This document shows, one piece after another, positions 5,082 through 23,530 of a DNA stretch of 32,000 nt (position 1 is its first letter; every line of letters begins with the position of its first letter). Both the position numbers and the translations under genes were made by a program. The notes beneath the pieces are model-generated. The model was not told where the DNA came from. It did not search any database and worked only from the letters and a program-made list of their open reading frames with translations. Source of the stretch: Candidatus Saccharimonadota bacterium (lineage in GTDB: Bacteria; Patescibacteriota; Gracilibacteria; UBA4473); contig OY781871.1 in assembly GCA_963677105.1 (NCBI GenBank), forward strand, positions 390,001-422,000, in the 5' to 3' direction.

Positions 5082-5737
5082 TGTTGTGTTGGAACTGGCT
5101 GAAAGAAGCTATTTTTCCTGTACGATGTATTATTTGTAAACAGGAAGGAAAATGGCTTTGCTCAAAACATAATCATTTTTGTTGTGCTCCAGAAAATAAA
5201 GCGAACTTCGCCTTTTTAGACGAAATTTTCGCAAGCACCGCATACTATGATAAAACAAGTAAAAAGTTGGTAGAATATTTTAAGTTTCGTGGATTTTCAG
5301 AATTAGCAGATATTATGACTGTGCCAATGTCTTCAATAATTATTAACAATAAATTACAAGAATTCACTCTTATTCCCATCCCTCTTCATTGGAGTAGAAA
5401 ACTCTGGCGTGGATTTAATCAAGCAGAAAAGCTAGCAAGATCATTACAAAAACAATTTCCGATGATGAATTTGTCTACTGATTTAAAACGAGTTCAACGA
5501 ACAAGGCAACAAGCCAAGTTACAACGAAATGACCGATTGATAAATGTAGAACAAGCGTTTAGATGGATGGGAGAAAATGTGCCCCAAAAAATTCTTCTCA
5601 TTGATGATGTAGTTGCTAGTGGAAGTACGCTAAATGCTGCTGCAAAATCCCTTAAACAAGTTGGAGCAAAAAATGTCACTGGACTTGTATTTGCACGCGG
5701 TGGAAAACCGTGCCAAAATTTGAACAATGAAAATTGA
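5081..5737 (+). CDS. comF: ComF family protein (phosphoribosyltransferase domain)
   Basis: N-terminal Cys cluster (CIICKQEGKWLCSKH) and C-terminal PRTase motif ILLIDDVVASGSTLNAAA. The ATG overlaps the upstream stop (TAATG). Ends with TGA. Confidence 0.8.
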   Translation: MLCWNWLKEAIFPVRCIICKQEGKWLCSKHNHFCCAPENKANFAFLDEIFASTAYYDKTSKKLVEYFKFRGFSELADIMTVPMSSIIINNKLQEFTLIPIPLHWSRKLWRGFNQAEKLARSLQKQFPMMNLSTDLKRVQRTRQQAKLQRNDRLINVEQAFRWMGENVPQKILLIDDVVASGSTLNAAAKSLKQVGAKNVTGLVFARGGKPCQNLNNEN

Positions 5738-7220
5738 ATTTTCGGGAGCGGCACGAGGAGTAACAGGATCAAAACATCTTCTCCACGTAAATGGAAAAAA
5801 AATATTGCTTGATTGCGGACTATATCAAGGACGAAGAAAACAGGCGATTGAAGCAAATATGAAATTCCCTTTTGAAGCAACAGAAATAGATGCTGTTGTT
5901 TTAAGTCACGCACATATTGATCACTCGGGAGCCTTACCTATTTTGGTAAAAAATGGATTTACCGGACCAATCTACTGTACTCATGCAACACGAGATTTGT
6001 GTTCTATAATGTTGCGAGACTCTGGATATATTCAAGAACGTGATGCTGAATGGCTCAAAAAGAAACTCAAAGCTCCTGACGCAGAACCCTTGTATACTGT
6101 TGCTGATGCAGAAAAAACTCTGTCTCTTTTCCGCTCGGTTGATTACAAACAACAATTTAAAATATGTCATGGAGTACGAGTAAAATTTCATGACGCTGGA
6201 CACATCCTTGGAAGTGCTCTAGAAGAATGGCATATTCGAGATAATGACACATCACAAGAGATAATATTTGGATTTACGGGTGATCTTGGACGAAAAAATC
6301 TTCCTATACTCAATGATCGTGAACAACTTCAAGACCTTGATGTGCTTCTTACTGAATCGACTTATGGAGACCGACTTCATGAAGAAATTAAAGATGTAGA
6401 AGAACATTTTGCTGCAAAAATTGTTGAAACAGTTGAACGTAGAGGAAAAGTCTTTATTCCAGCTTTTGCAGTAGAACGAACACAAGAAATTCTCTATGTA
6501 ATACGAGAAATGCAACACGAAGGGAAAATCCCAACAATCCCAATTTTTGTGGATTCCCCTCTCGCGACAAGTGCAACTGAAATATTTCAGTTACATCCAG
6601 AATGTTTTGATGAAGAATTAGTGGAAATGTTTGATCGTGGACAAAATCCTTTTGATGATATCGAGGGATTGCAATTCACTCGATCTGTTGATGAATCAAA
6701 GGCGATAAATAAATTCCCCGGCCCAGCTATCATTATTTCTGCAAGTGGAATGTGCGAAGCAGGACGAATTCGTCACCATTTAGCGAATAGTATTTCTGAT
6801 GAAAAAAATACGCTTCTCATTGTGGGCTTCATGGCAGAAAACACTCTTGGACGAAAGTTGGTAGAAAAAGAATCTCCTGTAAATATTTTTGGGGAACCAC
6901 ATGAAGTAAAAGCTGAAATTATTATTTTCAATGCATTTTCTGGGCACGCTGATCAAAATGGTTTACTTGAATTTGCTGGTGCATGTGGAAAACCAAAACA
7001 AGTGTTTTGTGTCCACGGAGAAAACGAACAAATGCTTACTTTCCGAGATAAACTCGGCACATTAAAAAACTTAGCTGATTCTACTATTGAAGCACCTCTT
7101 CCAGGAGAAATGTGGGAATTAGGACTAGATAAAGCTTGGAAAAAATCATCTTGGAGAAATCCTATTTCGGAACAACTTTTCCCTGAACTAGAAGAAAATA
7201 TTGATACTGAAAAAAAGTAA
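5727..7220 (+). CDS. MBL-fold beta-CASP ribonuclease (COG1236/CPSF-like)
   Basis: Has the HAHIDHSGALP metallo-beta-lactamase motif, the N-terminus MKIEFSGAARGVTGSKHLL and a late SGHAD motif typical of RNA-specific MBL nucleases. Overlaps comF by 11 nt. Confidence 0.8.
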   Translation: MKIEFSGAARGVTGSKHLLHVNGKKILLDCGLYQGRRKQAIEANMKFPFEATEIDAVVLSHAHIDHSGALPILVKNGFTGPIYCTHATRDLCSIMLRDSGYIQERDAEWLKKKLKAPDAEPLYTVADAEKTLSLFRSVDYKQQFKICHGVRVKFHDAGHILGSALEEWHIRDNDTSQEIIFGFTGDLGRKNLPILNDREQLQDLDVLLTESTYGDRLHEEIKDVEEHFAAKIVETVERRGKVFIPAFAVERTQEILYVIREMQHEGKIPTIPIFVDSPLATSATEIFQLHPECFDEELVEMFDRGQNPFDDIEGLQFTRSVDESKAINKFPGPAIIISASGMCEAGRIRHHLANSISDEKNTLLIVGFMAENTLGRKLVEKESPVNIFGEPHEVKAEIIIFNAFSGHADQNGLLEFAGACGKPKQVFCVHGENEQMLTFRDKLGTLKNLADSTIEAPLPGEMWELGLDKAWKKSSWRNPISEQLFPELEENIDTEKK

Positions 7221-7254: not shown

Positions 7255-7307
7255 TTTGATCTTTGTACTTTGATATTTGTAATTTTGAGTAAAGCGACAA
7301 TTTGCAC
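7255..7307 (+). repeat. heptamer array B with conserved tail
   Basis: TTTGATC TTTGTAC TTTGATA TTTGTAA TTTTGAG TAAAGCGA C AA TTTGCAC. Located between the MBL RNase gene and rpmB. Confidence 0.8.
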
Positions 7308-7354
7308 TTGACTGAAATCAAATCATAAGTACTCTCCGTCTGAATTTTTAGAAA
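7308..7354 (+). promoter_or_regulatory. candidate rpmB promoter plus conserved leader motif
   Basis: TTGACT (7308-7313), 16-nt spacer, TACTCT (7330-7335), then ATTTTTAGAAA (7344-7354). Superimposable on the rpsP upstream region. Confidence 0.4.
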
Positions 7355-8199: not shown

Positions 8200-8251
8200 A
8201 GAGAAAAAACTAGAAACTTCGGTCTGCAATCTACAAATAAGGAATTTTTTA

Positions 8252-8293
8252 TTTGCACTTTGATCTTTGTATATTGAACTTTGATATTTGTAT
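8252..8293 (+). repeat. heptamer array C
   Basis: TTTGCAC TTTGATC TTTGTAT ATTGAAC TTTGATA TTTGTAT, upstream of aspS. Confidence 0.8.
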
Positions 8294-8309
8294 CAATTTC
8301 CCATACAAT
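8281..8309 (+). promoter_or_regulatory. candidate aspS promoter (-35 supplied by array C)
   Basis: TTGATA (8281-8286, inside the fifth heptamer), 17-nt spacer, TACAAT (8304-8309). The ATG is at 8337. Confidence 0.35.
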
Positions 8310-8336
8310 TCGTGGTGAAAACTGACTTTCAAGAAA

Positions 8337-10106
8337 ATGTTGCGAACTCACACCTGCGGAGAATTAACCGCAAAAAATATCGGCGAAAACACGATCCTGT
8401 GCGGCTGGGTTCACGATCGACGCGATCTTGGTGGACTTATCTTTTTAACGCTTCGAGATCGATACGGATTGACTCAAATTATTCTCGATCCAGCAAAATG
8501 TGCAGAAGCACATACAATTGCCGAAAAGGTTCGTGCAGAATTTGTTCTTGAAATACACGGAATGGTACAAGCACGAGCTATTGGACAAGAAAAAAAGGAA
8601 CAAAAAACAGGAGAAATTGAAGTTTTACCAACGAAATTAAATATATTAAATCGTTCTAAAACTCCTCCTTTTGAAATAGATGCTGACGTAAAAAATGAAG
8701 ATTTGCGACTGGAATATCGTTATTTAGATTTGAGACGAGAACGATTACAGAAAAATCTACAATTACGACATGATATGACGCTTACCATCCGAAACTTTTT
8801 TGATAAAGAAAATTTTTTAGATATCGAGACTCCAATTATGGTAAAAGGAACGCCTGAGGGTTCTCGAGAATATCTGATTCCATCGCGTATTCATCCTGGA
8901 AAATTTTATGTTCTTCCGCAATCGCCACAACAACTCAAACAAATGTTAATGGTTGCTGGATATGATAAATATATGCAAATCGCTCGTTGTTTTCGTGATG
9001 AAGATTTGCGTGGTGATCGTCAACCAGAATTTACGCAAGTAGATTACGAAATGTCTTTTGTTGATACGGAAGATGTTATAGATATAACGGAACGACTTTT
9101 CATAGAATTAACAGAAAAACACGCTTCGCATGCAGAATGGAAAAAATTCCTAATCGATGGAAAATTTTTAAGAATGACGTGGAAAAATGCAATGGAAAAA
9201 TATGGTTCAGATAAACCAGATATTCGTTTTGAACTAGAACTGCATGATATAACTGAATTCTCACGAAACTGTGAATTTGGAGTATTTGAAAATGCTGAAC
9301 GAGTATTTGCACTTTGTGTACCAAAGAAATTAGGCGAATTTTCACGAAAACAAATTGAAGCTCTTGAGGCAATTGCAAAACAAAATGGAGCTGGCGGACT
9401 CGCTTGGTATCGAGCAGGACAAGCGGGAGGCGCTGTTGCAAAAAATGCTTCATATGAATTTCAAACAGCTGTAATAAGTAAATGTAATGCCGACGAAGGG
9501 GACTTAATTCTTTTTGGTGCAGGAGATTTTTTAACTGCTGTCGAACCACTTGGTGCTGTCCGATTACAACTGGGAGATCAACTGGGTTTACGAAAAGAAA
9601 ACGAATGGGCATATTTGTGGGTGGAAGATTTTCCAATGTTCGAGAAGAAAGAAGATGGAACTATTGCCGCTTCTCATCATCCTTTCACCGCTCCTCATCC
9701 AGAAGATATTGATAAACTAGAATCTGCCCCCATGGAGTGTCGTGCTCTTGCATACGATATTGTTTTAAATGGAGTAGAACTCGGAGGTGGATCAATTCGA
9801 ATTCATGATCCAGCATTACAACACAAAATTTTTGACATATTTGGGATGTCTGAAGATGAAATTCAAGAAAAATTTGGGCATTTATTAAAAGCTTTTTCTT
9901 ACGGATGTCCTCCTCATGGTGGATGTGCAATGGGATTGGATCGAATGGTTATGTTATTTGCAGGAGAACCGAATATTCGCGAAGTTATCGCATTCCCAAA
10001 AAATCAAATGGCTGTTGACTTGATGCTTGGCGCGCCCGGAATAATGCCGGAAAAGGAATTAAGTGAGCAAAACATAAGAGTCGCTGACACTTCAAATAAG
10101 AAATAA
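8337..10106 (+). CDS. aspS: aspartate--tRNA ligase
   Basis: 589 aa with class IIb features: MLRTHTCGEL, FRDEDLRGDRQPEFTQVD, GGGSIRIH, GLDRMVML. Confidence 0.95.
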   Translation: MLRTHTCGELTAKNIGENTILCGWVHDRRDLGGLIFLTLRDRYGLTQIILDPAKCAEAHTIAEKVRAEFVLEIHGMVQARAIGQEKKEQKTGEIEVLPTKLNILNRSKTPPFEIDADVKNEDLRLEYRYLDLRRERLQKNLQLRHDMTLTIRNFFDKENFLDIETPIMVKGTPEGSREYLIPSRIHPGKFYVLPQSPQQLKQMLMVAGYDKYMQIARCFRDEDLRGDRQPEFTQVDYEMSFVDTEDVIDITERLFIELTEKHASHAEWKKFLIDGKFLRMTWKNAMEKYGSDKPDIRFELELHDITEFSRNCEFGVFENAERVFALCVPKKLGEFSRKQIEALEAIAKQNGAGGLAWYRAGQAGGAVAKNASYEFQTAVISKCNADEGDLILFGAGDFLTAVEPLGAVRLQLGDQLGLRKENEWAYLWVEDFPMFEKKEDGTIAASHHPFTAPHPEDIDKLESAPMECRALAYDIVLNGVELGGGSIRIHDPALQHKIFDIFGMSEDEIQEKFGHLLKAFSYGCPPHGGCAMGLDRMVMLFAGEPNIREVIAFPKNQMAVDLMLGAPGIMPEKELSEQNIRVADTSNKK

Positions 10107-10125
10107 CAAAGAGCAAAAATCAAAA

Positions 10126-10188
10126 TTTGCACTTTGTACTCTGTACATTGATATTTGATATTTGTATATTGTTATTTGTACTTTGCTC
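10126..10188 (+). repeat. heptamer array D (longest, 9 units)
   Basis: TTTGCAC TTTGTAC TCTGTAC ATTGATA TTTGATA TTTGTAT ATTGTTA TTTGTAC TTTGCTC, between aspS and der. Confidence 0.85.
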
Positions 10189-10204
10189 TTCGTTGTGCTA
10201 CTTT
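10176..10204 (+). promoter_or_regulatory. candidate der promoter, possibly leaderless
   Basis: TTGTAC (10176-10181, inside the eighth heptamer), 17-nt spacer, TACTTT (10199-10204). Only 7 nt separate it from the der ATG at 10212. Confidence 0.3.
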
Positions 10205-10211
10205 CCGCGCG

Positions 10212-11624
10212 ATGAATAAAAATCTTCCAATCGTAGCTATTATTGGACGCCCAAATGTTGGAAAATCTACTCTTTTCAATACGTTCGTTGGAGAACGACG
10301 AGCCATTGTATCTAATATTGCAGGGACGACTCGTGATGCGATTACAGAACGCGTTCACGGAGATTTATATGATTTTTTATTAGTAGATACTGCTGGACTA
10401 ACTGATGATGAAGGAGATTCTTTAGAAGCCGAAATTCAACAACAAGCCGAGTTGGCACTTTCTCAGGCAGACATCGTTGTTTTCATGCTTGATGGAAGAG
10501 CTGAATTAACGAAAGATGATCTTGAATTAGCAAAACGTATGCGTGAGTCCAAAACTCCCGTTATTTTTTGTATGAATAAACTCGACGATGGAGTTATCCG
10601 AAATTGGGATTGTTTACAACTCGGACTTGGGGAACCTTTGGCCCTTTCTGCATTAAATTATGCTGGACGAGATGTTCTCACTGATAGAATTGAAACCGCT
10701 CTTGGAAAAGCTGGATTTAAACCAGAAGCAATTCGAGCAGAGGAGGAAAACCCAAATATAATTAAAATTGCACTGGTTGGACGACCAAATGTTGGAAAAT
10801 CATCATTATTTAATACATTAATTGGAACACAACGAAGTGTTGTTTCTGAACGAGCTGGAACGACACGCGACACAATTGATACTGAGTTACAAGTAGGTGG
10901 AACTGATTTTCTTCTTCTTGATACAGCTGGACTTCGTCGTCCTGGAAAAGTAGGAAAACAGCTTGAGTTTTGGAGTAGTGTACGAACGCGTCATGCAATC
11001 GAACGATCTGATGTATGTGCCGTTTTGATCGATGCAATCGATGGAATCACTCATCAAGATTTATCTATTCTTGGAGAAGCGGTAGAAGCGGGAAAAGGAA
11101 TTATCCTTTGTGTTAATAAATTCGATCTCGCTCGCGACCGAGCTAAACAAGGGGAAAAAGTTGATACTCGGGATTTGGCAGAAGTTCCAATGTGGGGAGA
11201 AGATCTTGATAAAATTCGATCAAAATATTTGAAATATCTCACCTCAAAAGTGAAATTTTTACCGTGGGTTCCTGTCCTTTTCTTTTCTGCAAAAACTGGA
11301 CGTGGCACAAAAGATTTATTTAAAAGCGCAATAGAAGTAAAAGCTGAACGAGAAAAACGTATTCCAACAGCAGATTTAAACCGGATTTTACCAGAAATTT
11401 TCTTCGGACACGTAAAACCTTCCGTGGGAACAAAAATGGGGAAACTGAAATACTGCTCACAAGTAACAAGTCGTCCTCCAAAATTCATCTTTCATGTAAA
11501 TAACACCGAAGCGTTCCATTTTTCATATGAACGATATTTGGAAAATCAATTACGAGAACGATACGGATTTTTCGGTTCACCAATTCGAATTGAATTGCGC
11601 GACGCAATGGGGAAGCGGAAATAA
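10212..11624 (+). CDS. der: ribosome biogenesis GTPase Der (EngA)
   Basis: Two tandem GTPase domains (GRPNVGKST and GRPNVGKSS; DTAG twice; NKLD and NKFD) plus a KH-like C-terminus. Start moved to the ATG at 10212 (MNKNLPIVAIIG) because the 19 extra codons in the track lie in the heptamer array. Confidence 0.95.
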   Translation: MNKNLPIVAIIGRPNVGKSTLFNTFVGERRAIVSNIAGTTRDAITERVHGDLYDFLLVDTAGLTDDEGDSLEAEIQQQAELALSQADIVVFMLDGRAELTKDDLELAKRMRESKTPVIFCMNKLDDGVIRNWDCLQLGLGEPLALSALNYAGRDVLTDRIETALGKAGFKPEAIRAEEENPNIIKIALVGRPNVGKSSLFNTLIGTQRSVVSERAGTTRDTIDTELQVGGTDFLLLDTAGLRRPGKVGKQLEFWSSVRTRHAIERSDVCAVLIDAIDGITHQDLSILGEAVEAGKGIILCVNKFDLARDRAKQGEKVDTRDLAEVPMWGEDLDKIRSKYLKYLTSKVKFLPWVPVLFFSAKTGRGTKDLFKSAIEVKAEREKRIPTADLNRILPEIFFGHVKPSVGTKMGKLKYCSQVTSRPPKFIFHVNNTEAFHFSYERYLENQLRERYGFFGSPIRIELRDAMGKRK

Positions 11625-11641: not shown

Positions 11642-11677
11642 TTGAAACCACAATTTTCAAAGTTCAAATTTTGCTCT

Positions 11678-12769
11678 CTACTCTTTGTTATTTGATAAAT
11701 CAAATATCTGAACTTCTTCCTGAGCAAACGCGGAAAAGTGCTCTATGTGTGTCGTACTAAAAAACACTTGTGAATCAACACATAATTTTTCTAATGCTGC
11801 TTGACGAACTGAATCAAGTTCAGAAAAACAGTCATCCAATAGCAAAATCGGCGGAACTCCACTGTGAGAAGATAGAATTTGTTTTTGTGCTGCAAGTAAT
11901 GCTAATAAAACTGATCGTTCTTCTCCACGACTTGCTGTGGAAATCAGCGGACGATTTCGAAGACGAAACACAAAATCATCACGATGTGGTCCTAAAAAAC
12001 TTTTTCGTGCTGCACATTCGCGTTGAAAATTTTCAGAAAAAAACTGACGAACTCCGTCTTCTGTCGGTTCATATTCTTCAGGAGTTTGTAACTCCACTGA
12101 AATGGAATCTGAGGAGTGAGAAATCTCTGTTAATTGCTGCTGAAATGGATCGGATAAAGATTGAAGGAACTCCGTTCGTTCTTTCCAAATATCTGGAATT
12201 ACGTTCGCAAGAATTTCATTCCATGGTTGTAAATCTTGAGTTCGAACTTGAGAAATAACTCTTCCACTTAAGTTCGAACTCGACTCTCTCAATAACGCAT
12301 TTTTTTGTCGTGTCGCTTTATCTGCACGAGAAAGATTCTCTCTATAAATGGGAGAAAGTTGAGATAATACACGATCAAAAAACTGTTGTCGTGCGCGTTT
12401 CGCCCCAGAAAAAAGCGATAAATGTTCTGGCGCAAATAACAAAGTAGGAATTTGTCCAAAAAATTTCTTTCGAGTTATTTTTTTCTCGTTTCGTATAAAT
12501 GCTCTTCCTCGTGGCTGAATCTGAATTTTAAATTGATCACCCGAACCCAAGATTGCTTGAATCTGAGCTGAATCTGCTCCATTACGAATCAAGTCAGAAG
12601 AAATAGTTTCTCTCCAGCTTTTCCCTACACTCAAGAGTGAAATCGCTTCTAACACATTCGTTTTCCCTCGTCCGTTCCCACCAACAAGCACTACAATATT
12701 TTTTTCAAATTCAAAAACTCGCTCTTTATAATTGCGAAAATCATGAAGGATGAGCGTTCGTAAAGTCAT
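11678..12769 (-). CDS. recF: DNA replication and repair protein RecF
   Basis: 363 aa with Walker A GGNGRGKTNVLEAISLL, QKNALLRE and the Walker B-like ILLLDDCFSELD. Confidence 0.9.
   Translation of the reverse strand: MTLRTLILHDFRNYKERVFEFEKNIVVLVGGNGRGKTNVLEAISLLSVGKSWRETISSDLIRNGADSAQIQAILGSGDQFKIQIQPRGRAFIRNEKKITRKKFFGQIPTLLFAPEHLSLFSGAKRARQQFFDRVLSQLSPIYRENLSRADKATRQKNALLRESSSNLSGRVISQVRTQDLQPWNEILANVIPDIWKERTEFLQSLSDPFQQQLTEISHSSDSISVELQTPEEYEPTEDGVRQFFSENFQRECAARKSFLGPHRDDFVFRLRNRPLISTASRGEERSVLLALLAAQKQILSSHSGVPPILLLDDCFSELDSVRQAALEKLCVDSQVFFSTTHIEHFSAFAQEEVQIFDLSNNKE
12239..12280. repeat. palindrome doublet AGTTCGAACT x2 inside recF coding sequence
   Basis: Perfect 10-bp palindromes at 12239-12248 and 12271-12280, 32 nt start to start. 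Confidence 0.9.
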
Positions 12770-12789
12770 CGATCATATTTTAACACTTG

Positions 12790-12833
12790 AGTTCGAACTT
12801 GTCTTGTTCCTATTTTCTTTTCAAGTTCGAACT
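12790..12833. repeat. palindrome doublet AGTTCGAACT x2 in the recF/transposase spacer
   Basis: Copies at 12790-12799 and 12824-12833, 34 nt start to start. The second touches the transposase stop codon (12833-12835). Confidence 0.9.
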
Positions 12834-13372
12834 TATTCAAACCCCGGATCAAATTCAGGATCTAATCCAATAGCTTCAATTATTGGAAATTCATTTGTCG
12901 ATGTTCCCCCTGCCCAAACCCATTCTTCCACATTTTCAACTATTTCATGTTTCAACGCATTATAACGAATATAATATGCCACTTTTTGTAAATAATTTTC
13001 ACTTATAATTTCTTTTGAATTAAAACGTCCTTCAAAAATAGGAGCCTTTTGTCCTTTTTTAACAGAATCACCATATTTTCTATTAAAATACATAGCATAC
13101 GATTGCTGAATTTTTTGCATAAACTTTGAAATTTGTGACGCTTCTCCGGCCTCTAAGTTCGAACTTGATATGTCCTCCGATAACAAAAAATGAAAATGAT
13201 TTGGTAAAAAACACCAAACATAAATTTTGATTGTTGGAAATTTTAAGAGATAACGCTTTATTGTGTCCCCAAACCGTATTAAATCTTGATCACAAAAAAA
13301 CAATCTTTGTTTGTTACATCCTCTATTATAAATATGATAATAAATACCTTTTTTAAAATTTCTCTTTTGCAT
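12833..13372 (-). CDS. IS200-like HUH/Y1 transposase, REP-associated tyrosine transposase (RAYT)-like
   Basis: 179 aa: GIYYHIYNRGCNKQRLF..., HUH-type motif PNHFHFLL, C-terminal YYIRYNALKHEI with a candidate catalytic Tyr. It is a single gene without IS terminal structures but is surrounded by short palindromes. Confidence 0.75.
   Translation of the reverse strand: MQKRNFKKGIYYHIYNRGCNKQRLFFCDQDLIRFGDTIKRYLLKFPTIKIYVWCFLPNHFHFLLSEDISSSNLEAGEASQISKFMQKIQQSYAMYFNRKYGDSVKKGQKAPIFEGRFNSKEIISENYLQKVAYYIRYNALKHEIVENVEEWVWAGGTSTNEFPIIEAIGLDPEFDPGFE
13156..13165. repeat. AGTTCGAACT palindrome inside the transposase gene
   Basis: Perfect copy, read as tca AGT TCG AAC TTa (SSSNL) in the transposase frame. 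Confidence 0.9.
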
Positions 13373-13458
13373 TTTAGGAACTTAGAAACCTACCCAAAAC
13401 ACTAATAAAAATAAGAAAAACAACAAACATCCTTTTTCATAAAACTTTAATACAAACA

Positions 13459-13468
13459 AGTTCGAACT
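13459..13468. repeat. AGTTCGAACT palindrome upstream of the transposase gene
   Basis: Perfect copy in the spacer between the transposase start and the SLH-gene terminator. Confidence 0.9.
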
Positions 13469-13583: not shown

Positions 13584-16500
13584 TTAGTCAGCGTTTGTCA
13601 TAGATGTTGTGTCAGTATCAAGCAAGTAACCGTTCAACCAGTCAAGTGTTGAGTCTGTGTGAGCGTTTGAAGACTCATCTGACCATACAGTCTTTGTTGT
13701 TTGAGTAGCTACGTTAGCAAGTGTAGCTGAAGTCAATCCTGTTGCTGCAAATGCTACTGTTTCAACAACAGTGTTTGCTCCAAGAACTGTAACTACACCA
13801 CCTGCAGAAGTTGTTGTAACTCCTGTGATAGATGCTGCGTCGATTAACGCTTTGATTGCATCAGCAACTGCTGTGTTAGCTCCCGCTCCCACACCAATCA
13901 ATGAAACTGCTGTTCCGTTAATTGTTAATGTACCTGCTGTCGAAGCAGCTGTAGTTGTTCCAACAATTGTATATGTTGAAGTCTGAGTCAACGCTGCTTT
14001 CGCTGCTGGTGCAACATATGCTGAATCGTTAGAAATTGTTACGTTCACTGCGTCATCGTCAGCAGCTGTTCCTGTGTCTACTGTATTGTCCATAAACAAT
14101 GCAAATGTTCGTGACTCTCCTGATGCCAATCTCTGGTTTGAGAAGTTTACAGTAACAGTTCCAGCTATGTCGTTTGCAGCTGTGAATGTATCCACAATTG
14201 ATGAAGTAACTGTAGCAGTATTATCGATTGTTCCGTCAGTTTTTACCTGTCGAACAACGAATCCTGCGTCAGCAGATGTCTTCATTCCTGACAATGCAAC
14301 ATCGAATGTTACTCGTCCAATCTCAGCCTGACGAGCTGCATCAGCTGAAATTGTGAATCGATAAATCTCTTGTGAAGCAGATGATGGATCTGAGAAGTTT
14401 GGCTGTGTAGCAGCGTGTTTCACAGAAACCTCAGTTCGGTAAGCCACGAATGGTTCACCAGCGTAAGTTCCGCTAATTTGACCTGCTGCCAAATCAGTTC
14501 CTGTAGCTGCAGTAAGTGCCTCTACTCCATTAGCTGTTCCTTCTGATGTGTCAGTAGTCAATTTCAATCGTTTACCAGTCATTGATGCTTGAGTAATATC
14601 TCGAACATCAACTTTAAGAGTAACAAATGTTGAATCGTCTTTTGGAACAGAAATTCGATCTTGGTTTGCAAGCTCGAAGTGTAGCAAGTCTCCTGTTTGC
14701 ATCTGTTTTGTCTGAACAAGTTGTCCAGCCTCATTGTACAATTTGAAGTCTGCTCGTGGACCAAATGTAGTCCATGATCCAGAATTATTATCCAAGTACA
14801 AGTCTTTAATTTGTACCTCGTCGTCTGCTGCATTGAATCGAATCTTCAATACTTCTACTTCATCAGCTCCTGCTACGAGGATATCTGAGTAAATTGTAGA
14901 ACCAATACTCATAACAAGTGAACCACTTGCAACAAGTGTAAATGTAGAACCATTTACTGCTGTCATTGGAGTTGTTGCATTTCCTCCTGGGAGGTATACA
15001 GTTTGTCCATTTTCTACATTATCTGCATCAACAGCAGTAATTCTCATTCGAAGAACGTCTCCTGATGATGTTTCGTTTGTGTTTACTACAACAGCAAATT
15101 CTTTTTGACCTGCTGATGGCACAACCACTGACAAGTCGTTAAATGTTGCTACTTCTGTAGTAGTATTAAAGTTCTTTGATGAACCCTGCTGTGCACCGTC
15201 TACGAAAATCGCAGCAGTATAATTAGCAGCGTTTCCAATAGATCCAACTGAATCATCTGCATCTACTGTAATAGATGTAACATTTACATCACCTGAGTCA
15301 TTGTTATCAAGAACAAACTCCATGAATGTAACATCATCCAATCCAGCAACGATAGTCTCTGATGAGAATCCGTCTGTTTTTGTGATTGTCAAAGCTGATG
15401 CTGTAACCTCAACCAATGATCCTTGTGCTGAACCAAGTAATTGGTCAGTAGGAACCTGATCACCTGTAGAGATGTACTCTGGTGATGAGAAGCTTGATGA
15501 AGCTAGGTTGAACTTAATAGTTGATCCTGTAGGTGCTGCGTCTTGAATGTTTAGAACTAGTTTCAAGATTGAAGCTCCTGCAATTTCAAATGTTGTGTCG
15601 TACTCAAGTTTAGCTGTTCCTAATACATCTGTAGTATTTGCAACCATTGCGTTCTCACTGTCGATCAAGTTGTCGTTCAAGAACAATCGGTAGTTGTTGA
15701 ATGCTGCGTTAGCTCCAATCAAGTGGTTAGCTGTAGCAGAATTTGCAACAAGAACTCCTACATTTGCTGTTCCTGTGTAAACAGAAGTCAAAGTAACTCC
15801 GTCAACCAAGAGTGGCTGGTCTACGATAACACGTGCTGTCATAGCTACGATGTCGTTAGATCCTGGAGCGTACTGTTGGTTACCCAATGATGATGGGTCA
15901 CGTGAAACGTTGATGTCTCCTGAGTCGATTGTATACATTTTCAATCGTGCACAGTTGTCTTCAGCGTCGCTGTTAGAACAAGTACCACCTGTAGTTGTTG
16001 TTCCTGTAGTTGTTGTTGTAAGGAATGAGTCTGAAGTAGCTTTTACTCCAAATGCAGTTCCAATTTCAATAGCTACAAGGTCTTCAAAGTTATCAATTTT
16101 GAAGTTAATTGTGTCTCCTTTTTCTGCTGAAACGATGTCAGCACGCATTGAGAAGATTCGTGAATCACCATCTTCGATGATGTATCCTCCAGTAACTCCG
16201 TTGTCCAATCGGAAAGTGATGTAATCACCGTCGATGATAGACTCTGCAGATACTTGCTCTCCTGAAACGTACAAAGCAACGTTTTCAAGTACGTTTTCTA
16301 ATTCAGCTGTACCGTCGTTTTTGAAAGTAATAGCTCGAATCTCAACGTCTTTGTTTGTTGATGACTCGTTCAACATTCGGAATTTACCGATCTCGATGAA
16401 GTTGTCTCCAACGTCGATAGTTGTGTCTGATCCTAGATCTGAGAAATCAACCTCTGATACTTGGTAATCAGCTACTTCCATCTCTTCTCCCTCAATTGGG

Positions 16501-17567
16501 AAGTCTCCTACAACATTCATAGCAGTAGATGCTACGTCATCAGCAGAAACCAAAGCCAATCGGTTGTGGTGTCCAATGTTTTTGTCAGAAGAAGTGTATT
16601 TTGCTGAAGCTACAACGTCAGCAACCAAAGTTTGTCCCGCAGGAGTTACTAATGGTGGGTTGAAACGTAATTCAACTACGTCATCGTTGTTAATTGATTT
16701 GTCGTTTCCTACTTTGAAACCATCAATTTCCATCCATACGTTTTTGAAGTCGTCGTTGTCACCAAGACCAAGACGTGTGAAAGTCAATGAAGAAATCTCA
16801 ACGTCTGCGTCGTCTGATGCAGTCAACTCAATAGTAGTATAAGGAACTGAAGTAGCATTGTATGGAACGTTTGTTCCACGTGGTGTTTCTTCTGAAAGCA
16901 TAACTTCCAATGTTCCTTCTGCTGGTCCGTCTGGGATAGATACTGCTAACAAACCGTCGTAAACGATTTTTGCAGTCTCAGCACGGTTAACTGGTTTACT
17001 TGCTCCGAATGTTCCGTCAGCGTAACCACGCATAAGATCGTAGTTGTATGCTGTTTCAACATATTCGAAGAACCAGTCACCTGATGTTACGTCATCGAAG
17101 TGAGGAGCACCTGTTGTGTCCAAGTCAAGTTCGAGAGCGTTAATCACCATTTTTGCCAACTCAGCACGGTTGATTCCGTTACCAGGACGGAAAGTTCCGT
17201 CAGGGTTACCATCAATCCATCCGTAGTTGTACATTGTTTCTACGTAGTCGTAGTACCATGCGTCTTCTTCAACGTCTGGAAAGTGTGCCCCTCCAGTTGT
17301 GTCGAAATCAACACCTGATGCCAATGTAATAATTTTCGCTACCTCTGCACGATTTAATTGTCGTGCTGGTGCAAAAGAACCGTCTGCGTTACCTCCAAGC
17401 ACGTCTAAAGCGACAAGCTCTTCAATAGCTTCAACAGCCCATGTTGGGATCTCGTTTACATCTGTGAAGTCCAAGCTTGCGAATGCCAATGATGGAATCA
17501 TTGTAAACGCCATAGCTGAAACTGCCAATGCTGCGATTCCCTTTTTAAAATGAGACAAAATAGTCAT
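13584..17567 (-). CDS. S-layer-type surface protein with three N-terminal SLH domains (1327 aa)
   Basis: Start set at the ATG at 17567 (MTILSHFKKGIAALAVSAMAFTMIPSLAFA, signal-peptide-like); the track's GTG extension to 17642 is unlikely. Three SLH repeats: FTDVNEIPTWAVEAIEEL...NRAEVAKII, FPDVEEDAWYYDYVETMY...NRAELAKMV, FDDVTSGDWFFEYVETAY...NRAETAKIV. The rest is Thr/Ala/Val/Asp-rich and looks beta-rich. Confidence 0.85.
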   Translation of the reverse strand: MTILSHFKKGIAALAVSAMAFTMIPSLAFASLDFTDVNEIPTWAVEAIEELVALDVLGGNADGSFAPARQLNRAEVAKIITLASGVDFDTTGGAHFPDVEEDAWYYDYVETMYNYGWIDGNPDGTFRPGNGINRAELAKMVINALELDLDTTGAPHFDDVTSGDWFFEYVETAYNYDLMRGYADGTFGASKPVNRAETAKIVYDGLLAVSIPDGPAEGTLEVMLSEETPRGTNVPYNATSVPYTTIELTASDDADVEISSLTFTRLGLGDNDDFKNVWMEIDGFKVGNDKSINNDDVVELRFNPPLVTPAGQTLVADVVASAKYTSSDKNIGHHNRLALVSADDVASTAMNVVGDFPIEGEEMEVADYQVSEVDFSDLGSDTTIDVGDNFIEIGKFRMLNESSTNKDVEIRAITFKNDGTAELENVLENVALYVSGEQVSAESIIDGDYITFRLDNGVTGGYIIEDGDSRIFSMRADIVSAEKGDTINFKIDNFEDLVAIEIGTAFGVKATSDSFLTTTTTGTTTTGGTCSNSDAEDNCARLKMYTIDSGDINVSRDPSSLGNQQYAPGSNDIVAMTARVIVDQPLLVDGVTLTSVYTGTANVGVLVANSATANHLIGANAAFNNYRLFLNDNLIDSENAMVANTTDVLGTAKLEYDTTFEIAGASILKLVLNIQDAAPTGSTIKFNLASSSFSSPEYISTGDQVPTDQLLGSAQGSLVEVTASALTITKTDGFSSETIVAGLDDVTFMEFVLDNNDSGDVNVTSITVDADDSVGSIGNAANYTAAIFVDGAQQGSSKNFNTTTEVATFNDLSVVVPSAGQKEFAVVVNTNETSSGDVLRMRITAVDADNVENGQTVYLPGGNATTPMTAVNGSTFTLVASGSLVMSIGSTIYSDILVAGADEVEVLKIRFNAADDEVQIKDLYLDNNSGSWTTFGPRADFKLYNEAGQLVQTKQMQTGDLLHFELANQDRISVPKDDSTFVTLKVDVRDITQASMTGKRLKLTTDTSEGTANGVEALTAATGTDLAAGQISGTYAGEPFVAYRTEVSVKHAATQPNFSDPSSASQEIYRFTISADAARQAEIGRVTFDVALSGMKTSADAGFVVRQVKTDGTIDNTATVTSSIVDTFTAANDIAGTVTVNFSNQRLASGESRTFALFMDNTVDTGTAADDDAVNVTISNDSAYVAPAAKAALTQTSTYTIVGTTTAASTAGTLTINGTAVSLIGVGAGANTAVADAIKALIDAASITGVTTTSAGGVVTVLGANTVVETVAFAATGLTSATLANVATQTTKTVWSDESSNAHTDSTLDWLNGYLLDTDTTSMTNAD

Positions 17568-18016
17568 CTTTTTGGGATTATAAATAAAATCTTGTGGGTT
17601 CGAATAAACAAACCCGAAACTCCTAGAAAATGAAAAACTCACCGAATAGACACCGCAAAAGTAGCGGAATCACTCAGTGTTCTTTGAAATTCTTAGGCAT
17701 ATAAAAAAGTTGAAAAAGCTCTATATAAGGGTCTTTTCTCTAGAAAAATATTCTTTTCCGGCCGCTGTTTCAAAGAACGAGTTTTTTTATTCACTATCCC
17801 TTATGGAGAGCGAGCAGAGAGCGCATTTTTGTCACAAGTCTGCCAAACCACCGATATCGTATGAATTTATGGGGAAAAGTCAACATTTTCCCTGTCTTAC
17901 GAAACCGGTCATAAAATCAAACGAAAAAACCTAGAAAACGTTACAAATAAAACGAGAAACTGGTGTTGGAATCAATAACTCCAAATTGCCTGGAGTCAAG
18001 AAAGGAATAATACAAT
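17568..18016 (-). promoter_or_regulatory. long non-coding promoter/leader region of the SLH gene
   Basis: About 450 nt without a credible ORF. Two by-eye sigma70-like candidates lie on the minus strand: TTGACT (17883..17878), 16 nt, TACGAT (17861..17856); and TTGAAA (17773..17768), 17 nt, TATTTT (17750..17745). Either implies a leader of roughly 170-290 nt. Confidence 0.35.
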
Positions 18017-18020
18017 ATGT

Positions 18021-18062
18021 TTTGTCCTTTGTACTTTGAAGTTTGTAATTTGAAAATTGAAC
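18021..18062 (+). repeat. heptamer array E
   Basis: TTTGTCC TTTGTAC TTTGAAG TTTGTAA TTTGAAA ATTGAAC. It ends exactly at the stop codon (CTA, 18063-18065) of the minus-strand coiled-coil gene. Confidence 0.8.
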
Positions 18063-18575
18063 CTATTCCACAATCGTGTCTCTTAAGGCTTCAATCGCAT
18101 CAACACTGTCTCCTACGTTCTCTCTTACCTCTTGCACTGAGTCATTTAGCTCCTGTAATTGGCTTTTTGTTTCCTCGTATTGCTGTTTTACTTCTGCGAT
18201 TTCTTTTTCAATTTCTGCCTTCTTTTGCTCAAATGATCTCCTTTTTTCATCTATTTTTTGCTGAAACTGAAACACTTCTTCCTCAATTGATTCGTTTTTC
18301 TCTTCTAATTTCACCTTTATTTCGTTGAATTCTTCTTCTATTTGAAGTTTTCTTTTTTTATATTCCTCTTCTATGGTGTCGTATTTTTCGAGTAAAAAGT
18401 TCTTGCGCACAGAGAACAAGGATTCTTCAATTGCTCCCACATCACCGCCTGTCATTTCGGCAACTTTTTTTTGTATTCGTAGCGACCAAATATCCCATTC
18501 ATCTGGATGTTTTATATATACCCACGACAAAAAACAAATTCCGCTGATTAATAATGCTGCGATAAATCGTTTCAT
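18063..18575 (-). CDS. membrane-anchored coiled-coil protein (170 aa)
   Basis: N-terminal hydrophobic anchor (FIAALLISGICFLSWVYI) followed by a long E/K-rich heptad-like region. The start overlaps the upstream stop (ATGA). Confidence 0.55.
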   Translation of the reverse strand: MKRFIAALLISGICFLSWVYIKHPDEWDIWSLRIQKKVAEMTGGDVGAIEESLFSVRKNFLLEKYDTIEEEYKKRKLQIEEEFNEIKVKLEEKNESIEEEVFQFQQKIDEKRRSFEQKKAEIEKEIAEVKQQYEETKSQLQELNDSVQEVRENVGDSVDAIEALRDTIVE

Positions 18576-20836: not shown

Positions 20837-20955
20837 TACTTACTTTTTAGAACTTTTTTATATTTTTGTCAACATATTTAAGAAGAGATAATTCACAATC
20901 ATTTGACAACATTTGCAAACAGGAATACTCATGTACACGATTTGATATTTTTGAA

Positions 20956-21165
20956 ATGGAAAACCAATGTTCAATAGAACCAGAAAAAGAATGTATTGGT
21001 GCTCAAGAGTGTAAGAAAAAAGCATTGAAAGCAGTTCAAAACATTCATTCTGTTTGTGATATCGAGCCAGGAAAATTAATAAAATATTTCCATAAACAAG
21101 AAATGAAACTCATCCAAGTGGAGCGCGATAAAATTAAATGTGCCAATGAAAAATTGCAAAAATAA
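20956..21165 (+). CDS. small Cys-containing protein, tandem paralog 1 (69 aa)
   Basis: MENQCSIEPEKECIGAQEC...KIKCANEKLQK. The ATG at 20956 lies within the track ORF 20866..21165. Candidate promoter: TTGACA (20903-20908), 17 nt, TACTCA (20926-20931). Confidence 0.55.
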   Translation: MENQCSIEPEKECIGAQECKKKALKAVQNIHSVCDIEPGKLIKYFHKQEMKLIQVERDKIKCANEKLQK

Positions 21166-21192
21166 TAATTTCAATTATTTAATCTAAAACCA

Positions 21193-21410
21193 ATGACAGA
21201 TTGTGAAAATGGTATCGGTGCGGAAAAATGTAAACAAGAAAATTCTAGAAAACTTACCGATCTTGAAGAGTTTAAAAAAATAAAGAGAAGTTAGGAATAA
21301 TTCTAGACGAAACTTCCCAAGCAGTTCTTGAAAAAATAGAGACTAAAACCGCTCAAGTAATTCAAAAAAAAGTGGCTTGCGCCAATCGTAAAATAGAAGA
21401 AAAACAATAA
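21193..21410 (+). pseudogene. small Cys-containing protein, tandem paralog 2, frame broken at an A7 run
   Basis: ATG at 21193 gives MTDCENGIGAEKCKQENSRKLTDLEEFKK, then a stop at 21292-21294. The -1 frame from 21279 continues NKEKLGIILDETSQAVLEKIETKTAQVIQKKVACANRKIEEKQ to the stop at 21408-21410, restoring the family C-terminus. The shift site is AAAAAAA at 21274-21280. Confidence 0.45.
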
Positions 21411-21434
21411 TTTTAATTATTTAATCCCAAACCC

Positions 21435-21632
21435 ATGTCAGAAAAATGTACAATCGATCCTGAAAAAGAATGTATTGGAGCAAAAGACTGTGGATATACA
21501 AATCGCAGAAATATTGAAGAGACTCAACTTACCGCACTTGGGTTGAACTCTTGTTTGCAAGAAACAAAAGATCATATGATTGATGAATATCGAAAAAAAG
21601 TAGCATGTGCAACTGAAAAGTGTGCAAAATAA
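21435..21632 (+). CDS. small Cys-containing protein, tandem paralog 3 (65 aa)
   Basis: MSEKCTIDPEKECIGAKDC...KKVACATEKCAK. The N-terminal 19 aa are nearly identical to paralog 1. The upstream spacer matches that of paralog 2. Confidence 0.55.
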   Translation: MSEKCTIDPEKECIGAKDCGYTNRRNIEETQLTALGLNSCLQETKDHMIDEYRKKVACATEKCAK

Positions 21633-21633
21633 A

Positions 21634-21704
21634 TTTGTAGTTTGCCGTTTGTAAATTGAAGTTTGTTATTTGTTCTTTGATATTTGGAGCGAAACGACTA
21701 TTCT
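21634..21704 (+). repeat. heptamer array F with conserved tail
   Basis: TTTGTAG TTTGCCG TTTGTAA ATTGAAG TTTGTTA TTTGTTC TTTGATA TTTGGAG CGAAACGA C TATTCT. TTGATA (21677-21682), 16 nt, TATTCT (21699-21704) is a promoter-like arrangement for the M16 gene. Confidence 0.8.
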
Positions 21705-23439: not shown

Positions 23440-23474
23440 AGAAAAATACATTTTCACTCGCAATAACAACATTA

Positions 23475-23530
23475 TTTGTACTTTGCCCTTTGTAATTTGA
23501 TATTTTAAGCGAAGCACCTATTTCCACAAT
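23475..23530 (+). repeat. heptamer array G with conserved tail
   Basis: TTTGTAC TTTGCCC TTTGTAA TTTGATA TTTTAAG CGAAGCAC C TATTTC CACAAT. The tail runs through the stop codon (CTA, 23518-23520) of the minus-strand gene. GCGAAGC is at 23509-23515. Confidence 0.8.

Follow-up and report, generated by a model that had tools for sequence, protein, structure and literature searches.

The stretch of DNA analysed here, hereafter the window, comprises 32,000 nucleotides of a Candidatus Saccharimonadota bacterium (GenBank assembly GCA_963677105.1, contig OY781871.1, positions 390,001 to 422,000) with a G+C content of 37.8%, and it carries, in the spacers between its genes, tandem arrays of 7-bp units of the general form TTTGNNN. 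The named relatives of its AspRS, GlmS and M16 peptidase proteins are Gracilibacteria or Peregrinibacteria. A preliminary description, made from the letters of the window, had listed seven arrays, all on the plus strand, and on re-reading all seven coordinates and unit sequences matched.

Four of the arrays lie between two plus-strand genes. The first, of five units (7255-7289), sits between the stop codon (7220) of a metallo-beta-lactamase (MBL)/beta-CASP gene and the promoter of the L28 gene, ending 18 bp 5' of the -35 box of that promoter. Six units (8252-8293) occupy the TrmH-AspRS spacer, and the AspRS-Der spacer holds the longest array, with nine units (10126-10188). The fourth, of eight units (21634-21689), starts 1 nt past the stop codon of a small Cys-rich open reading frame (ORF) and precedes the M16 peptidase gene. 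Elsewhere on the plus strand, six units (18021-18062) directly abut (0 bp) the stop codon of a 170-aa minus-strand gene, the sole array between two minus genes; five units (23475-23509) lie in a convergent spacer 8 bp from the stop codon of a 435-aa minus-strand gene; and a marginal array, TTTGTAG TTTGTGA TTTTAAG (1939-1959), lies in a convergent spacer 8 bp from the stop codon of minus-strand GlmS. The minus strand has two three-unit mini-arrays: TTTGATT TTTGCTC TTTGTTA (10104-10124), which overlaps the AspRS stop codon, abuts the 10126 array and forms the CAAA arm of a hairpin, and TTTGAAC TTTGAAA ATTGTGG (11648-11668), part of a short AU-rich hairpin in the convergent Der-RecF spacer.

The arrays are non-random and intergenic

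A regular-expression search of the window for at least four consecutive in-phase NTTGNNN units returned six arrays on the plus strand and none on the minus strand. Six of the seven sites originally listed therefore stand at this length; the site at 1939 consists of two TTTG units plus TTTTAAG only. Tandem Repeats Finder called a period of 7, 14 or 21 at five of the seven arrays. Dinucleotide-preserving shuffles of the whole window, the comparison that the preliminary description had proposed, contained 0.013 arrays of at least four units per strand, and 1000 shuffles of the intergenic DNA alone (2.8 kb) contained none, versus six observed. A chance origin is excluded, and the arrays are a real feature of this DNA.

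The estimate that arrays fill about half of some 14 longer spacers was borne out, with an array in 7 of the 14 spacers above 50 bp. All arrays also lie outside credible coding sequence, as had been stated. The M16 protein is recorded at 420 aa, which places its start at 21731; the Der N-terminus is consistent with an ATG at 10212; and an ORF at 18017-18328 runs antisense to a gene for which a relative has an orthologue. Nor are the arrays CRISPR, on which we concur with the first reading: their 7-bp units are contiguous and have no spacers, whereas CRISPR repeats of 25-40 bp alternate with unique ones. We also set aside DnaA-trios, IHF sites, Fur-box hexamer arrays, primase initiation triplets, rut sites for Rho and the A-to-N mutagenesis of diversity-generating retroelements, each of which misfits in period, core, number of loci or intergenic position.

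Units keep a TTTG core and have diverged elsewhere

A logo built from 42 units gave 1.47, 1.84, 2.0 and 1.63 bits for positions 1-4 (T, T, T, G) and 0.39, 0.65 and 0.19 bits for positions 5-7, where 18 different triplets occur. Adjacent units shared 0.97 of their three variable bases, versus 1.10 of three for all pairs of units; adjacent units are thus no more alike than random pairs, and the arrays bear no sign of recent slippage. A neutral array would decay evenly over all seven positions, so something keeps (T)TTG every 7 bases. The arrays are a lattice under constraint rather than a newly formed microsatellite. The motifs TATTTCCACAAT and TTTTAAGCGAAGC were not enriched outside the arrays.

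These properties place the arrays only partly within known classes of repeat. As in heptanucleotide tandem repeats, 7-bp units run head to tail beyond chance length, but the units are not copies of one heptamer, TTTG alone being conserved. Phase-variable simple sequence repeats are perfect, and the units here are imperfect. The hmw1A and hmw2A genes of Haemophilus influenzae carry perfect, hypermutable, phase-variable 7-bp tandem repeats in their promoter regions. The arrays resemble these as 7-bp tandem repeats in a promoter region, of a kind whose copy number can set expression; unlike them, the units of the window have diverged, adjacent ones being no closer than random pairs, and this divergence makes rapid slippage unlikely.

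Two arrays are predicted to end in a -35 box

Among the roles that the preliminary description had offered as fallbacks was a promoter, UP-like or protein-binding one, and of these proposals it is the best supported, through overlap of the 8252 and 21634 arrays with -35 boxes; the protein-binding part is an inference. At AspRS the penultimate unit of the array coincides with the -35 box of a promoter, TTGATA-17-TACAAT (8281-8309 on the plus strand, -10 box at 8304-8309), predicted by a consensus scan and by alignment with four relatives. In this five-genome alignment TTGATA of the window stands in the -35 column opposite TTGACT, TTGACT, TTGATT and TTGATT, and the -10 column reads TACAAT, CACAAT or CAGACT. 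One of the relatives (locus L128) already has two heptads, ATTGATT TTTGATA, at the AspRS -35 position.

The penultimate unit of the 21634 array likewise coincides with the predicted -35 box of the M16 peptidase promoter, TTGATA-16-TATTCT (21677-21704, plus strand, -10 box at 21699-21704). It aligns with TTGCCA-17-CACACT of a relative, and in both genomes the -10 box lies 5 nt 5' of a conserved CGAACTTTTTT, about 25 nt before the ATG. The consensus scan picked the AspRS and M16 sites independently of the alignments. A promoter-like TTGTAC-17-TACTTT (10176-10204, plus strand, TACTTT at 10199-10204) at the end of the longest array lies 7 nt 5' of the Der ATG at 10212. In a relative, 88 bp 5' of ClpB and co-oriented with it, TTTGTAG TTTGTAG TTTGATA is followed after 16 nt by TATAAC.

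A sigma-70-type arrangement of TTGNNN, 16-18 bp and TANNNT ahead of a gene was present at three arrays only (8252, 10126 and 21634), and the position of the boxes was conserved for AspRS (five genomes) and M16 (two genomes). Each of the four arrays in plus-plus spacers is oriented toward the gene downstream of it. These alignments indicate that the 3' end of at least two arrays is a predicted -35 box of working type, extended upstream in 7-bp steps.

The AspRS promoter/leader (8294-8325) also has a conserved inverted repeat over its -10 box, CCGCACAATTCGCGG in relatives (L125, L242) and CCCATACAATTCGTGG here, with a conserved GTGAAAAYTGAC on its 3' side. The inverted repeat may be an operator or a leader hairpin.

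The arrays are a recent gain

The preliminary description had suggested checking orthologous spacers. The closest syntenic match was a 383-kb JGI contig (JGI 3300036764, Ga0376080_0000007), of which 43 kb was compared; its proteins are 86-87% identical to those of the window, and it preserves the blocks TrmH-L28-MBL-ComF-pilin-KH-S16 with GlmS, and SLH-175aa-105aa-PKD through to M16. These 43 kb contain no TTTG array. The remaining relatives, contigs with 71-87% AspRS identity and about 48 kb of non-redundant sequence, had no array of at least four units save a perfect (TTTGAAG)4 at one contig end. That repeat occupies positions 2-29 of locus L128; repeats of this kind may interrupt short-read assembly and be under-represented in counts from metagenome-assembled genomes. 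The protein collection searched held no second genome with an AspRS above 90% identity.

What stands in the orthologous spacers of the syntenic relative could be read at three sites. In the MBL-L28 spacer the L28 promoter (TTGAC[GT]-16-TACTCT) and the 5' untranslated region (5'UTR) are conserved, the array part is unalignable, and an AU-rich inverted repeat, CAAATCAAAA-N24-TTTTGATTTG, takes the place of the array. The spacer 3' of GlmS measures 41 bp and contains a small hairpin plus a T-run, and the stop codon of the orthologue of the 170-aa gene is followed by a palindrome, CAAGCCCGGGCTTG. The coding ends themselves are unchanged (VTVK-stop in GlmS, ..VE-stop in the 170-aa gene). Since the arrays are absent from the orthologous sites, they arose after the divergence of the two lineages, in the space that separates a stop codon from the following signal. 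By this comparison they are a recent and lineage-specific gain.

The nearest relative has lattices of its own: (TTATTAG)4 together with an inverted (CTAAATA)4 lies 5' of its S-layer gene, and (ACTCAT)5 lies 5' of M16. In the former (L249, 5012-5095) the heptad arms flank a 26-bp near-palindromic centre, CCCCAAAAAATATTTTTTCTAG. The window has a central piece of the CCCCAAAAAATATTTTTTCTAG type, inverted and without heptad arms, an arrangement that may reflect an insertion, or a segment of the S-layer leader that can invert.

Gene order around AspRS differs as well. TrmH-AspRS-Der in the window (8200-10212) is unlike the arrangement in L125, L126, L128, L242 and L246 on both sides of AspRS; in relatives UvrB or other genes come after AspRS, and a 64-aa gene comes after TrmH. 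Arrays are present at both AspRS junctions of the window, on the TrmH side and on the Der side.

Some arrays belong to a dispersed module

Four arrays (21634, 1939, 23475 and 7255) have in common a tail, TTT[TG][AG]AG[CT][AG]AA[AG]C, and share 20-27 of 38 positions with one another, versus 9-21 of 38 for other pairs. The arrays at 1939 and 23475, with three and five units, also have about 30 bp of left flank in common (AATAC.TTTTC.CTCGCAA..ACAACA.TA), so that 1909-1967 and 23445-23517 are homologous modules. By these similarities the four tail-sharing arrays mark a dispersed module with paralogues.

Such a module could be selfish or neutral, a REP- or MITE-like unit of A-rich left flank, array and tail that recently spread to spacers with gene 3' ends, possibly mobilised on single-stranded DNA (ssDNA) by a RAYT-like enzyme that would fix its orientation, the -35 overlap being incidental. 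The paralogous flanks at 1939 and 23475, the tail common to four arrays, the absence of arrays at the orthologous sites of relatives, the siting in spacers with 3' ends and not in divergent ones, the uniform orientation and the presence of a RAYT-like gene in the window would all suit this account. However, the left flank of the 1939 module, AATACCTTTTCG, partly matches the native GlmS 3' flank of the relative, a match that favours segmental copying or local remodelling over an element with its own ends. The strong conservation of the core speaks against neutrality, and two exact module patterns had no match in the JGI metagenomes.

The RAYT-like gene itself argues further against mobilisation. 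This Y1 transposase gene (12833-13372, minus strand; NF047646, 59.5 bits versus a cut-off of 80) is the HUH transposase that had been proposed to make or target the arrays, and the proposal was not supported: the gene is surrounded by a different repeat, six AGTTCGAACT palindromes (core TTCGAA, often lengthened to CAAGTTCGAACTTG) that lie in 12239-13460, in and around the gene and the 5' part of recF, and the heptad arrays are not there. The AGTTCGAACT palindromes occur nowhere else in the window and are candidate cognate REP-like sites. The syntenic relative (L249, near 5325, 5408 and 9905) has palindromes that share these arms around another centre, CAAGCCCGGGCTTG.

Like REP and BIME sequences, the arrays are extragenic, lineage-specific and favour gene 3' ends, with a RAYT-like gene in the window. 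REPs, however, are imperfect 20-40-nt palindromes in which a 5' tetranucleotide, GTAG, is conserved, and as a rule they flank the RAYT gene; the arrays consist of direct repeats, lack the defining palindrome and do not flank that gene. We judge a selfish or neutral module unlikely.

Similar arrays occur in distant genomes

A scan of species-representative genomes with TTTGTACTTTGNNNTTTGTAA, in which spacers were classed from crude ORF calls, gave at least 113 loci. By this pattern, TTTGTAC-type arrays occur in more than 100 species of Acidobacteriota (Pyrinomonadaceae), Bacteroidota, Patescibacteria, Planctomycetota and Cyanobacteria. Among the matches listed, about a quarter came from Pyrinomonadaceae and other Acidobacteriota and about a third from Bacteroidota, and the rest include at least seven Patescibacteria along with Planctomycetota and Cyanobacteria; many of the listed loci are true heptad arrays (TTTGTAC, TTTGTGC, TTTGAGC). 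In tandem spacers of the listed other genomes, the T-rich strand was the gene strand in 17 cases versus 10, which is not significant. An apparent rule that the array follows a co-directional upstream gene (31:13) was discarded: much of it comes from convergent spacers, which are co-directional either way, and the informative tandem spacers give the same 17:10.

Two candidate-phyla loci show close proximity to genes. In a Saccharibacteria locus (L164, about 1745-1772) 11 nt separate the end of a TTTGTAC-type array from a tRNA gene, and in a Magasanikbacteria locus (L134, 137-157) such an array immediately follows a terminator hairpin and ends 4 nt short of a start codon, so that siting at gene junctions extends to other candidate-phyla lineages. 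G+C-rich genomes (Pyrinomonadaceae and Phycisphaerales; L130, L141, L144, L150, L209, L233 and others) contain inverted pairs of heptad arrays (TTTGTAC/TTTGTGC/TTTGAGC) 40-100 bp apart, mostly in convergent spacers, which would fold to long imperfect hairpins; we found no description of this widespread repeat type in the literature consulted.

The cyanobacterial STRR sequences are heptamer repeats. Among prokaryotic long simple sequence repeats (LSSRs) heptanucleotides dominate, and they have been ascribed to polymerase slippage (Mrazek et al., 2007, as reviewed in PMC4679880). The arrays share with LSSRs and STRRs the head-to-tail 7-bp units, the mostly intergenic position and the patchy, lineage-specific distribution; they differ in that their units keep TTTG only, in their shortness (3-9 units) and in the fusion of two of them to a -35 box. 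The TAACTGA repeats of marine Beggiatoaceae are intergenic, occur in 2-6 copies, some split by related 7-mers, and mostly point toward the downstream gene (MacGregor, 2015; PMC4679880). Their function is unexplained, with S1, Csp or CsrA proposed as binders, and they end a few nt from the start codon in place of a ribosome-binding site, from which a translation role was suggested (PMC4679880). The window resembles this system in having many short sets of an intergenic heptamer with a proposed binding protein. Unlike TAACTGA, the core is different, arrays stop 24-74 nt short of start codons, either at the -35 box or ahead of it, and three face gene 3' ends.

The preliminary description had not recognised the arrays as a described repeat family. 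That stands for this sequence, and the literature consulted describes nothing like these arrays in Peregrinibacteria; it does not stand for the kind, as intergenic heptanucleotide tandem repeats are known (PMC4679880). The variant with a degenerate core fused to -35 boxes is not described there, and the kind to which it belongs is known and unexplained.

For a lattice that is read every 7 bp, the best mechanistic model, by analogy only, is the omega protein (ParB, RHH) of plasmid pSM19035, which binds 7-10 contiguous, unspaced, non-palindromic heptads over promoters, one dimer per heptad, with at least four needed (PMC9499535). Its heptad is WATCACW, arranged in mixed direct and inverted order on a plasmid beside the binder's own genes (PMC9499535). 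The likeness is one of architecture: at least four contiguous 7-bp units lie over a promoter at 8252, 10126 and 21634. The arrays of the window, in contrast, are chromosomal and all-direct with a TTTG (CAAA) core; some reverse units (TATCAAA, AATCAAA) match WATCACW at six of seven positions, and most do not. No RHH protein was detected among the window proteins scanned.

A significant hairpin is present at one array

The preliminary description had held that the arrays cannot form hairpins. This fails at 10126, where 10101-10125 (CAAA sense) base-pairs with 10154-10177 in a fold of -27.7 kcal/mol (z=-3.9) that none of 200 shuffles reached. Hairpin potential was weak at 21634 (z=-2.2) and 1939 (z=-1.6 to -2.3) and absent at the other arrays. 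A general hairpin or terminator model was rejected, as complementarity between array and left flank was significant at 10126 only. A scan for intrinsic terminators found none at the arrays. Rfam at gathering thresholds gave no match in the window, an E-value search of 17600-18100 gave a chance-level match only, and the window has no tRNA or tmRNA gene.

Alternatively, the arrays would act in the transcript, in the 3'UTR or intercistronic RNA of the upstream gene, as a (UUUGNNN)n lattice, either as the U-rich tail or descending arm of a terminator or as a platform for a binder with about 7 nt per domain (a cold-shock domain, or S1), in termination, antitermination or processing. Six of the seven arrays and the 11648 mini-array lie downstream of a same-strand gene, and the arrays fill the slot in which the relative has CAAATCAAAA-N24-TTTTGATTTG, the GlmS hairpin with its T-run, and CAAGCCCGGGCTTG, that is, a terminator slot. 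At 10126 a long AU-rich hairpin is followed by U-rich units, and at 21634 a 9-bp stem (21639-21647/21707-21715, with a loop of about 59 nt) is followed by T7. Arrays listed in other genomes are commoner in spacers with a gene 3' end (13:1). In their period and TTTG core the arrays bring to mind the heptamer GTCTTTG/T bound by B. subtilis CspB (PMC1904285), and S1, Csp or CsrA were the binders proposed for TAACTGA repeats (PMC4679880).

Against this, the RNA sense is mixed, as the 1939 and 18021 arrays would be read as CAAA in the 3'UTRs of minus genes; a U-tract needs no invariant G every 7 nt; significant hairpin potential exists at a single array; orientation in tandem spacers of the listed loci is not significant (17:10); and there is no csp gene within the window. 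A function in the transcript is, on this balance, improbable.

The longer arrays share one orientation within one replichore

The strand lock reported in the preliminary description holds at six to none for arrays of at least four units (two-sided p=0.03). The two minus-strand three-unit arrays (10104-10124 and 11648-11668) qualify by the standard that had admitted 1939, and with three-unit arrays the lock loosens to 7:2 (p=0.18); we regard it as suggestive. Relative to the gene with the nearest stop codon the orientation is random (four in the same sense, three opposite), the chromosome strand being uniform. Plus arrays occur in all four plus-plus spacers, and the five minus-minus spacers are free of minus arrays (Fisher p=0.008).

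GC skew at four-fold sites of the coding strand was positive in 11 of 11 minus genes (+0.18 to +0.73, pooled +0.49) and about zero in the 14 plus genes (pooled -0.01). Separating coding-strand from replication effects gave a replication-associated skew of about -0.25 for the plus strand. We assumed the rule that the leading strand is usually G-rich. The whole 32 kb lies in one replichore, and the plus (TTTG) strand is its C-rich, lagging-type strand. Within a single replichore a strand lock looks the same as chance, and on the replication-strand or ssDNA role that had been proposed from it the window is neutral, offering neither support nor refutation. The ribosomal protein genes, AspRS and Der are on this C-rich, lagging-type strand.

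A replication-linked account would have arrays grow, or be tolerated, only where TTTG is on the lagging-type strand, through slipped-strand mispairing, or would have them act as an ssDNA motif, with the promoter link secondary. It would explain why all six arrays of at least four units are on the plus strand despite flanking genes that run both ways, why the nearest-stop count is nearly even and why the junctions contrast at 4/4 versus 0/5. The single replichore with a C-rich plus strand would fit it, as would a slippage origin of prokaryotic heptanucleotide repeats (Mrazek et al., 2007, as reviewed in PMC4679880). Yet two three-unit arrays are on the minus strand, six to nine cases in one replichore leave the test nearly powerless, nothing in adjacent units points to recent slippage, and the arrays place G on an otherwise C-rich strand. 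In other genomes, 8-kb loci with several unpaired arrays have both orientations, with seven neighbouring pairs the same and four different by hand count. We doubt that replication accounts for the arrays.

A broader form of this idea would have TTTG always on the lagging-type strand genome-wide, regardless of gene direction, as a new class of replication-oriented architectural repeat, made or read on ssDNA by a binder with 7 nt per protomer or by the RAYT-like HUH enzyme, lattices with other cores (the TTAG heptads of the nearest relative) behaving alike. This we consider unlikely.

The arrays may be an amplified -35-type lattice

The reading that we prefer, tentatively and with a probability of roughly 0.4, is that the arrays form, at operon junctions, an amplified lattice of -35-type heptads that a protein probably reads at the DNA level. 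They would be lineage-specific, recently gained tandem iterations of T+TTGNNN in the loosely constrained DNA that separates a stop codon from the following promoter, the heptads having been grown or copied into free DNA 5' of promoters. At plus-plus junctions the array would read toward the downstream promoter, with the penultimate unit as the -35 hexamer at AspRS and M16; the geometry at Der fits the same arrangement, and at L28 the array would end 18 bp 5' of the -35 box. As (T)TTG stays constant every 7 bp and the remaining three positions drift, the lattice would be read heptad by heptad. The reader could be a DNA-level initiation factor, either RNA polymerase (sigma region 4 or alpha-CTD) or a cooperative heptad regulator of the omega/ParB type, and the arrays would tune transcription at operon junctions. 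The reading protein, its identity and the regulatory effect we infer from this pattern. The three arrays that face minus-gene 3' ends would be orphans, copies of the module that landed without a following gene.

Several observations weigh against this interpretation. The L28 promoter (TTGACT-16-TACTCT, 7308-7335, plus strand) is conserved in the syntenic relative and is distinct from, and independent of, the 7255 array. None of the four divergent, promoter-only spacers has an array, and their promoters are conserved. None of the five minus-minus junction promoters is preceded by a minus-strand array, versus four of four on the plus side (p=0.008), so that promoter direction alone is insufficient as an explanation. 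The arrays at 1939, 18021 and 23475 and both minus-strand mini-arrays face gene 3' ends; in the 3'UTRs of their minus genes, the 1939 and 18021 arrays lie in the CAAA sense between the stop codon and the gene's own hairpin (1849-1873 and 17978-17996, the latter a terminator-like hairpin of the 170-aa gene on the minus strand). The lattice extends about 60-70 bp 5' of the -35 box, past the usual reach of RNA polymerase, and no candidate heptad-binding protein was found among the window proteins scanned. Among the listed arrays of other phyla, convergent spacers outnumber divergent ones 13:1 (p=0.002), and there is no bias toward starts of downstream genes (20:20).

At the three arrays that face 3' ends we also rejected -10-like sequences, which count on the same side: TATTTC/TATTCC at 1939, 18021 and 23475 is the last codon plus stop of the neighbouring gene and lacks the conserved final T. 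An idea that the element supplies stop codons or antisense promoters was dropped, since the likeness between the 3' flanks of 18021 and 23475 consists of native last codons and stops, and the native ends of GlmS and the 170-aa gene are conserved in the relative.

Almost nothing is known of how transcription is organised in bacteria of the candidate phyla radiation, and with arrays in about half of the longer spacers here they would form a major share of the non-coding DNA of a genome of about 1 Mb. Should a protein read a 7-bp TTG lattice near promoters, it would be a simple global regulator or nucleoid organiser that can be tested with synthetic DNA; should orientation follow the replication fork, the arrays would serve as a new marker of strand and as a natural archive of slippage that depends on orientation. 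They also connect scattered reports of heptanucleotide repeats, such as cyanobacterial STRR and Beggiatoaceae TAACTGA: TTTGTAC-type arrays recur in distant phyla, and close relatives use different cores.

Other features of the window

Directly 5' of the M16 peptidase and a DUF4395 membrane protein, at about 20950-21633, lie three tandem paralogous small Cys-rich ORFs with the motif C.I[ED]PEKECIGA..C ... K[VI].CA.EK, the middle one apparently frameshifted. The arrangement recalls precursor peptides with a processing protease. At this position the syntenic relative has two unrelated minus-strand genes.

The beta-CASP metallo-beta-lactamase (5727-7220, plus strand) is encoded by the last gene of the S16-KH-pilin-ComF operon. 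Its best NCBIfam match was 'type VII CRISPR-associated Cas14' (416 bits versus a cut-off of 800), and it scored 313 bits against archaeal aCPSF1 (cut-off 580); by these similarities it is probably a CPSF-like RNase and not RNase J. The 5'UTRs of S16 and L28 (3827-3838 and 7342-7354) have a common motif, GA(A/T)TTTTTAGAAA, 10-12 nt before the ATG, which is conserved at the orthologous sites of the relative (L246); a Shine-Dalgarno sequence is not evident for S16, L28 or most other genes of the window.

Large surface-type proteins take up much of the remainder. The window encodes a 1352-aa SLH-domain protein (13584-17642, minus strand), a 623-aa PKD-like protein and, from 25610 to 32000 on the plus strand, an ORF of at least 2130 codons for a giant surface-type protein that runs past the window end.

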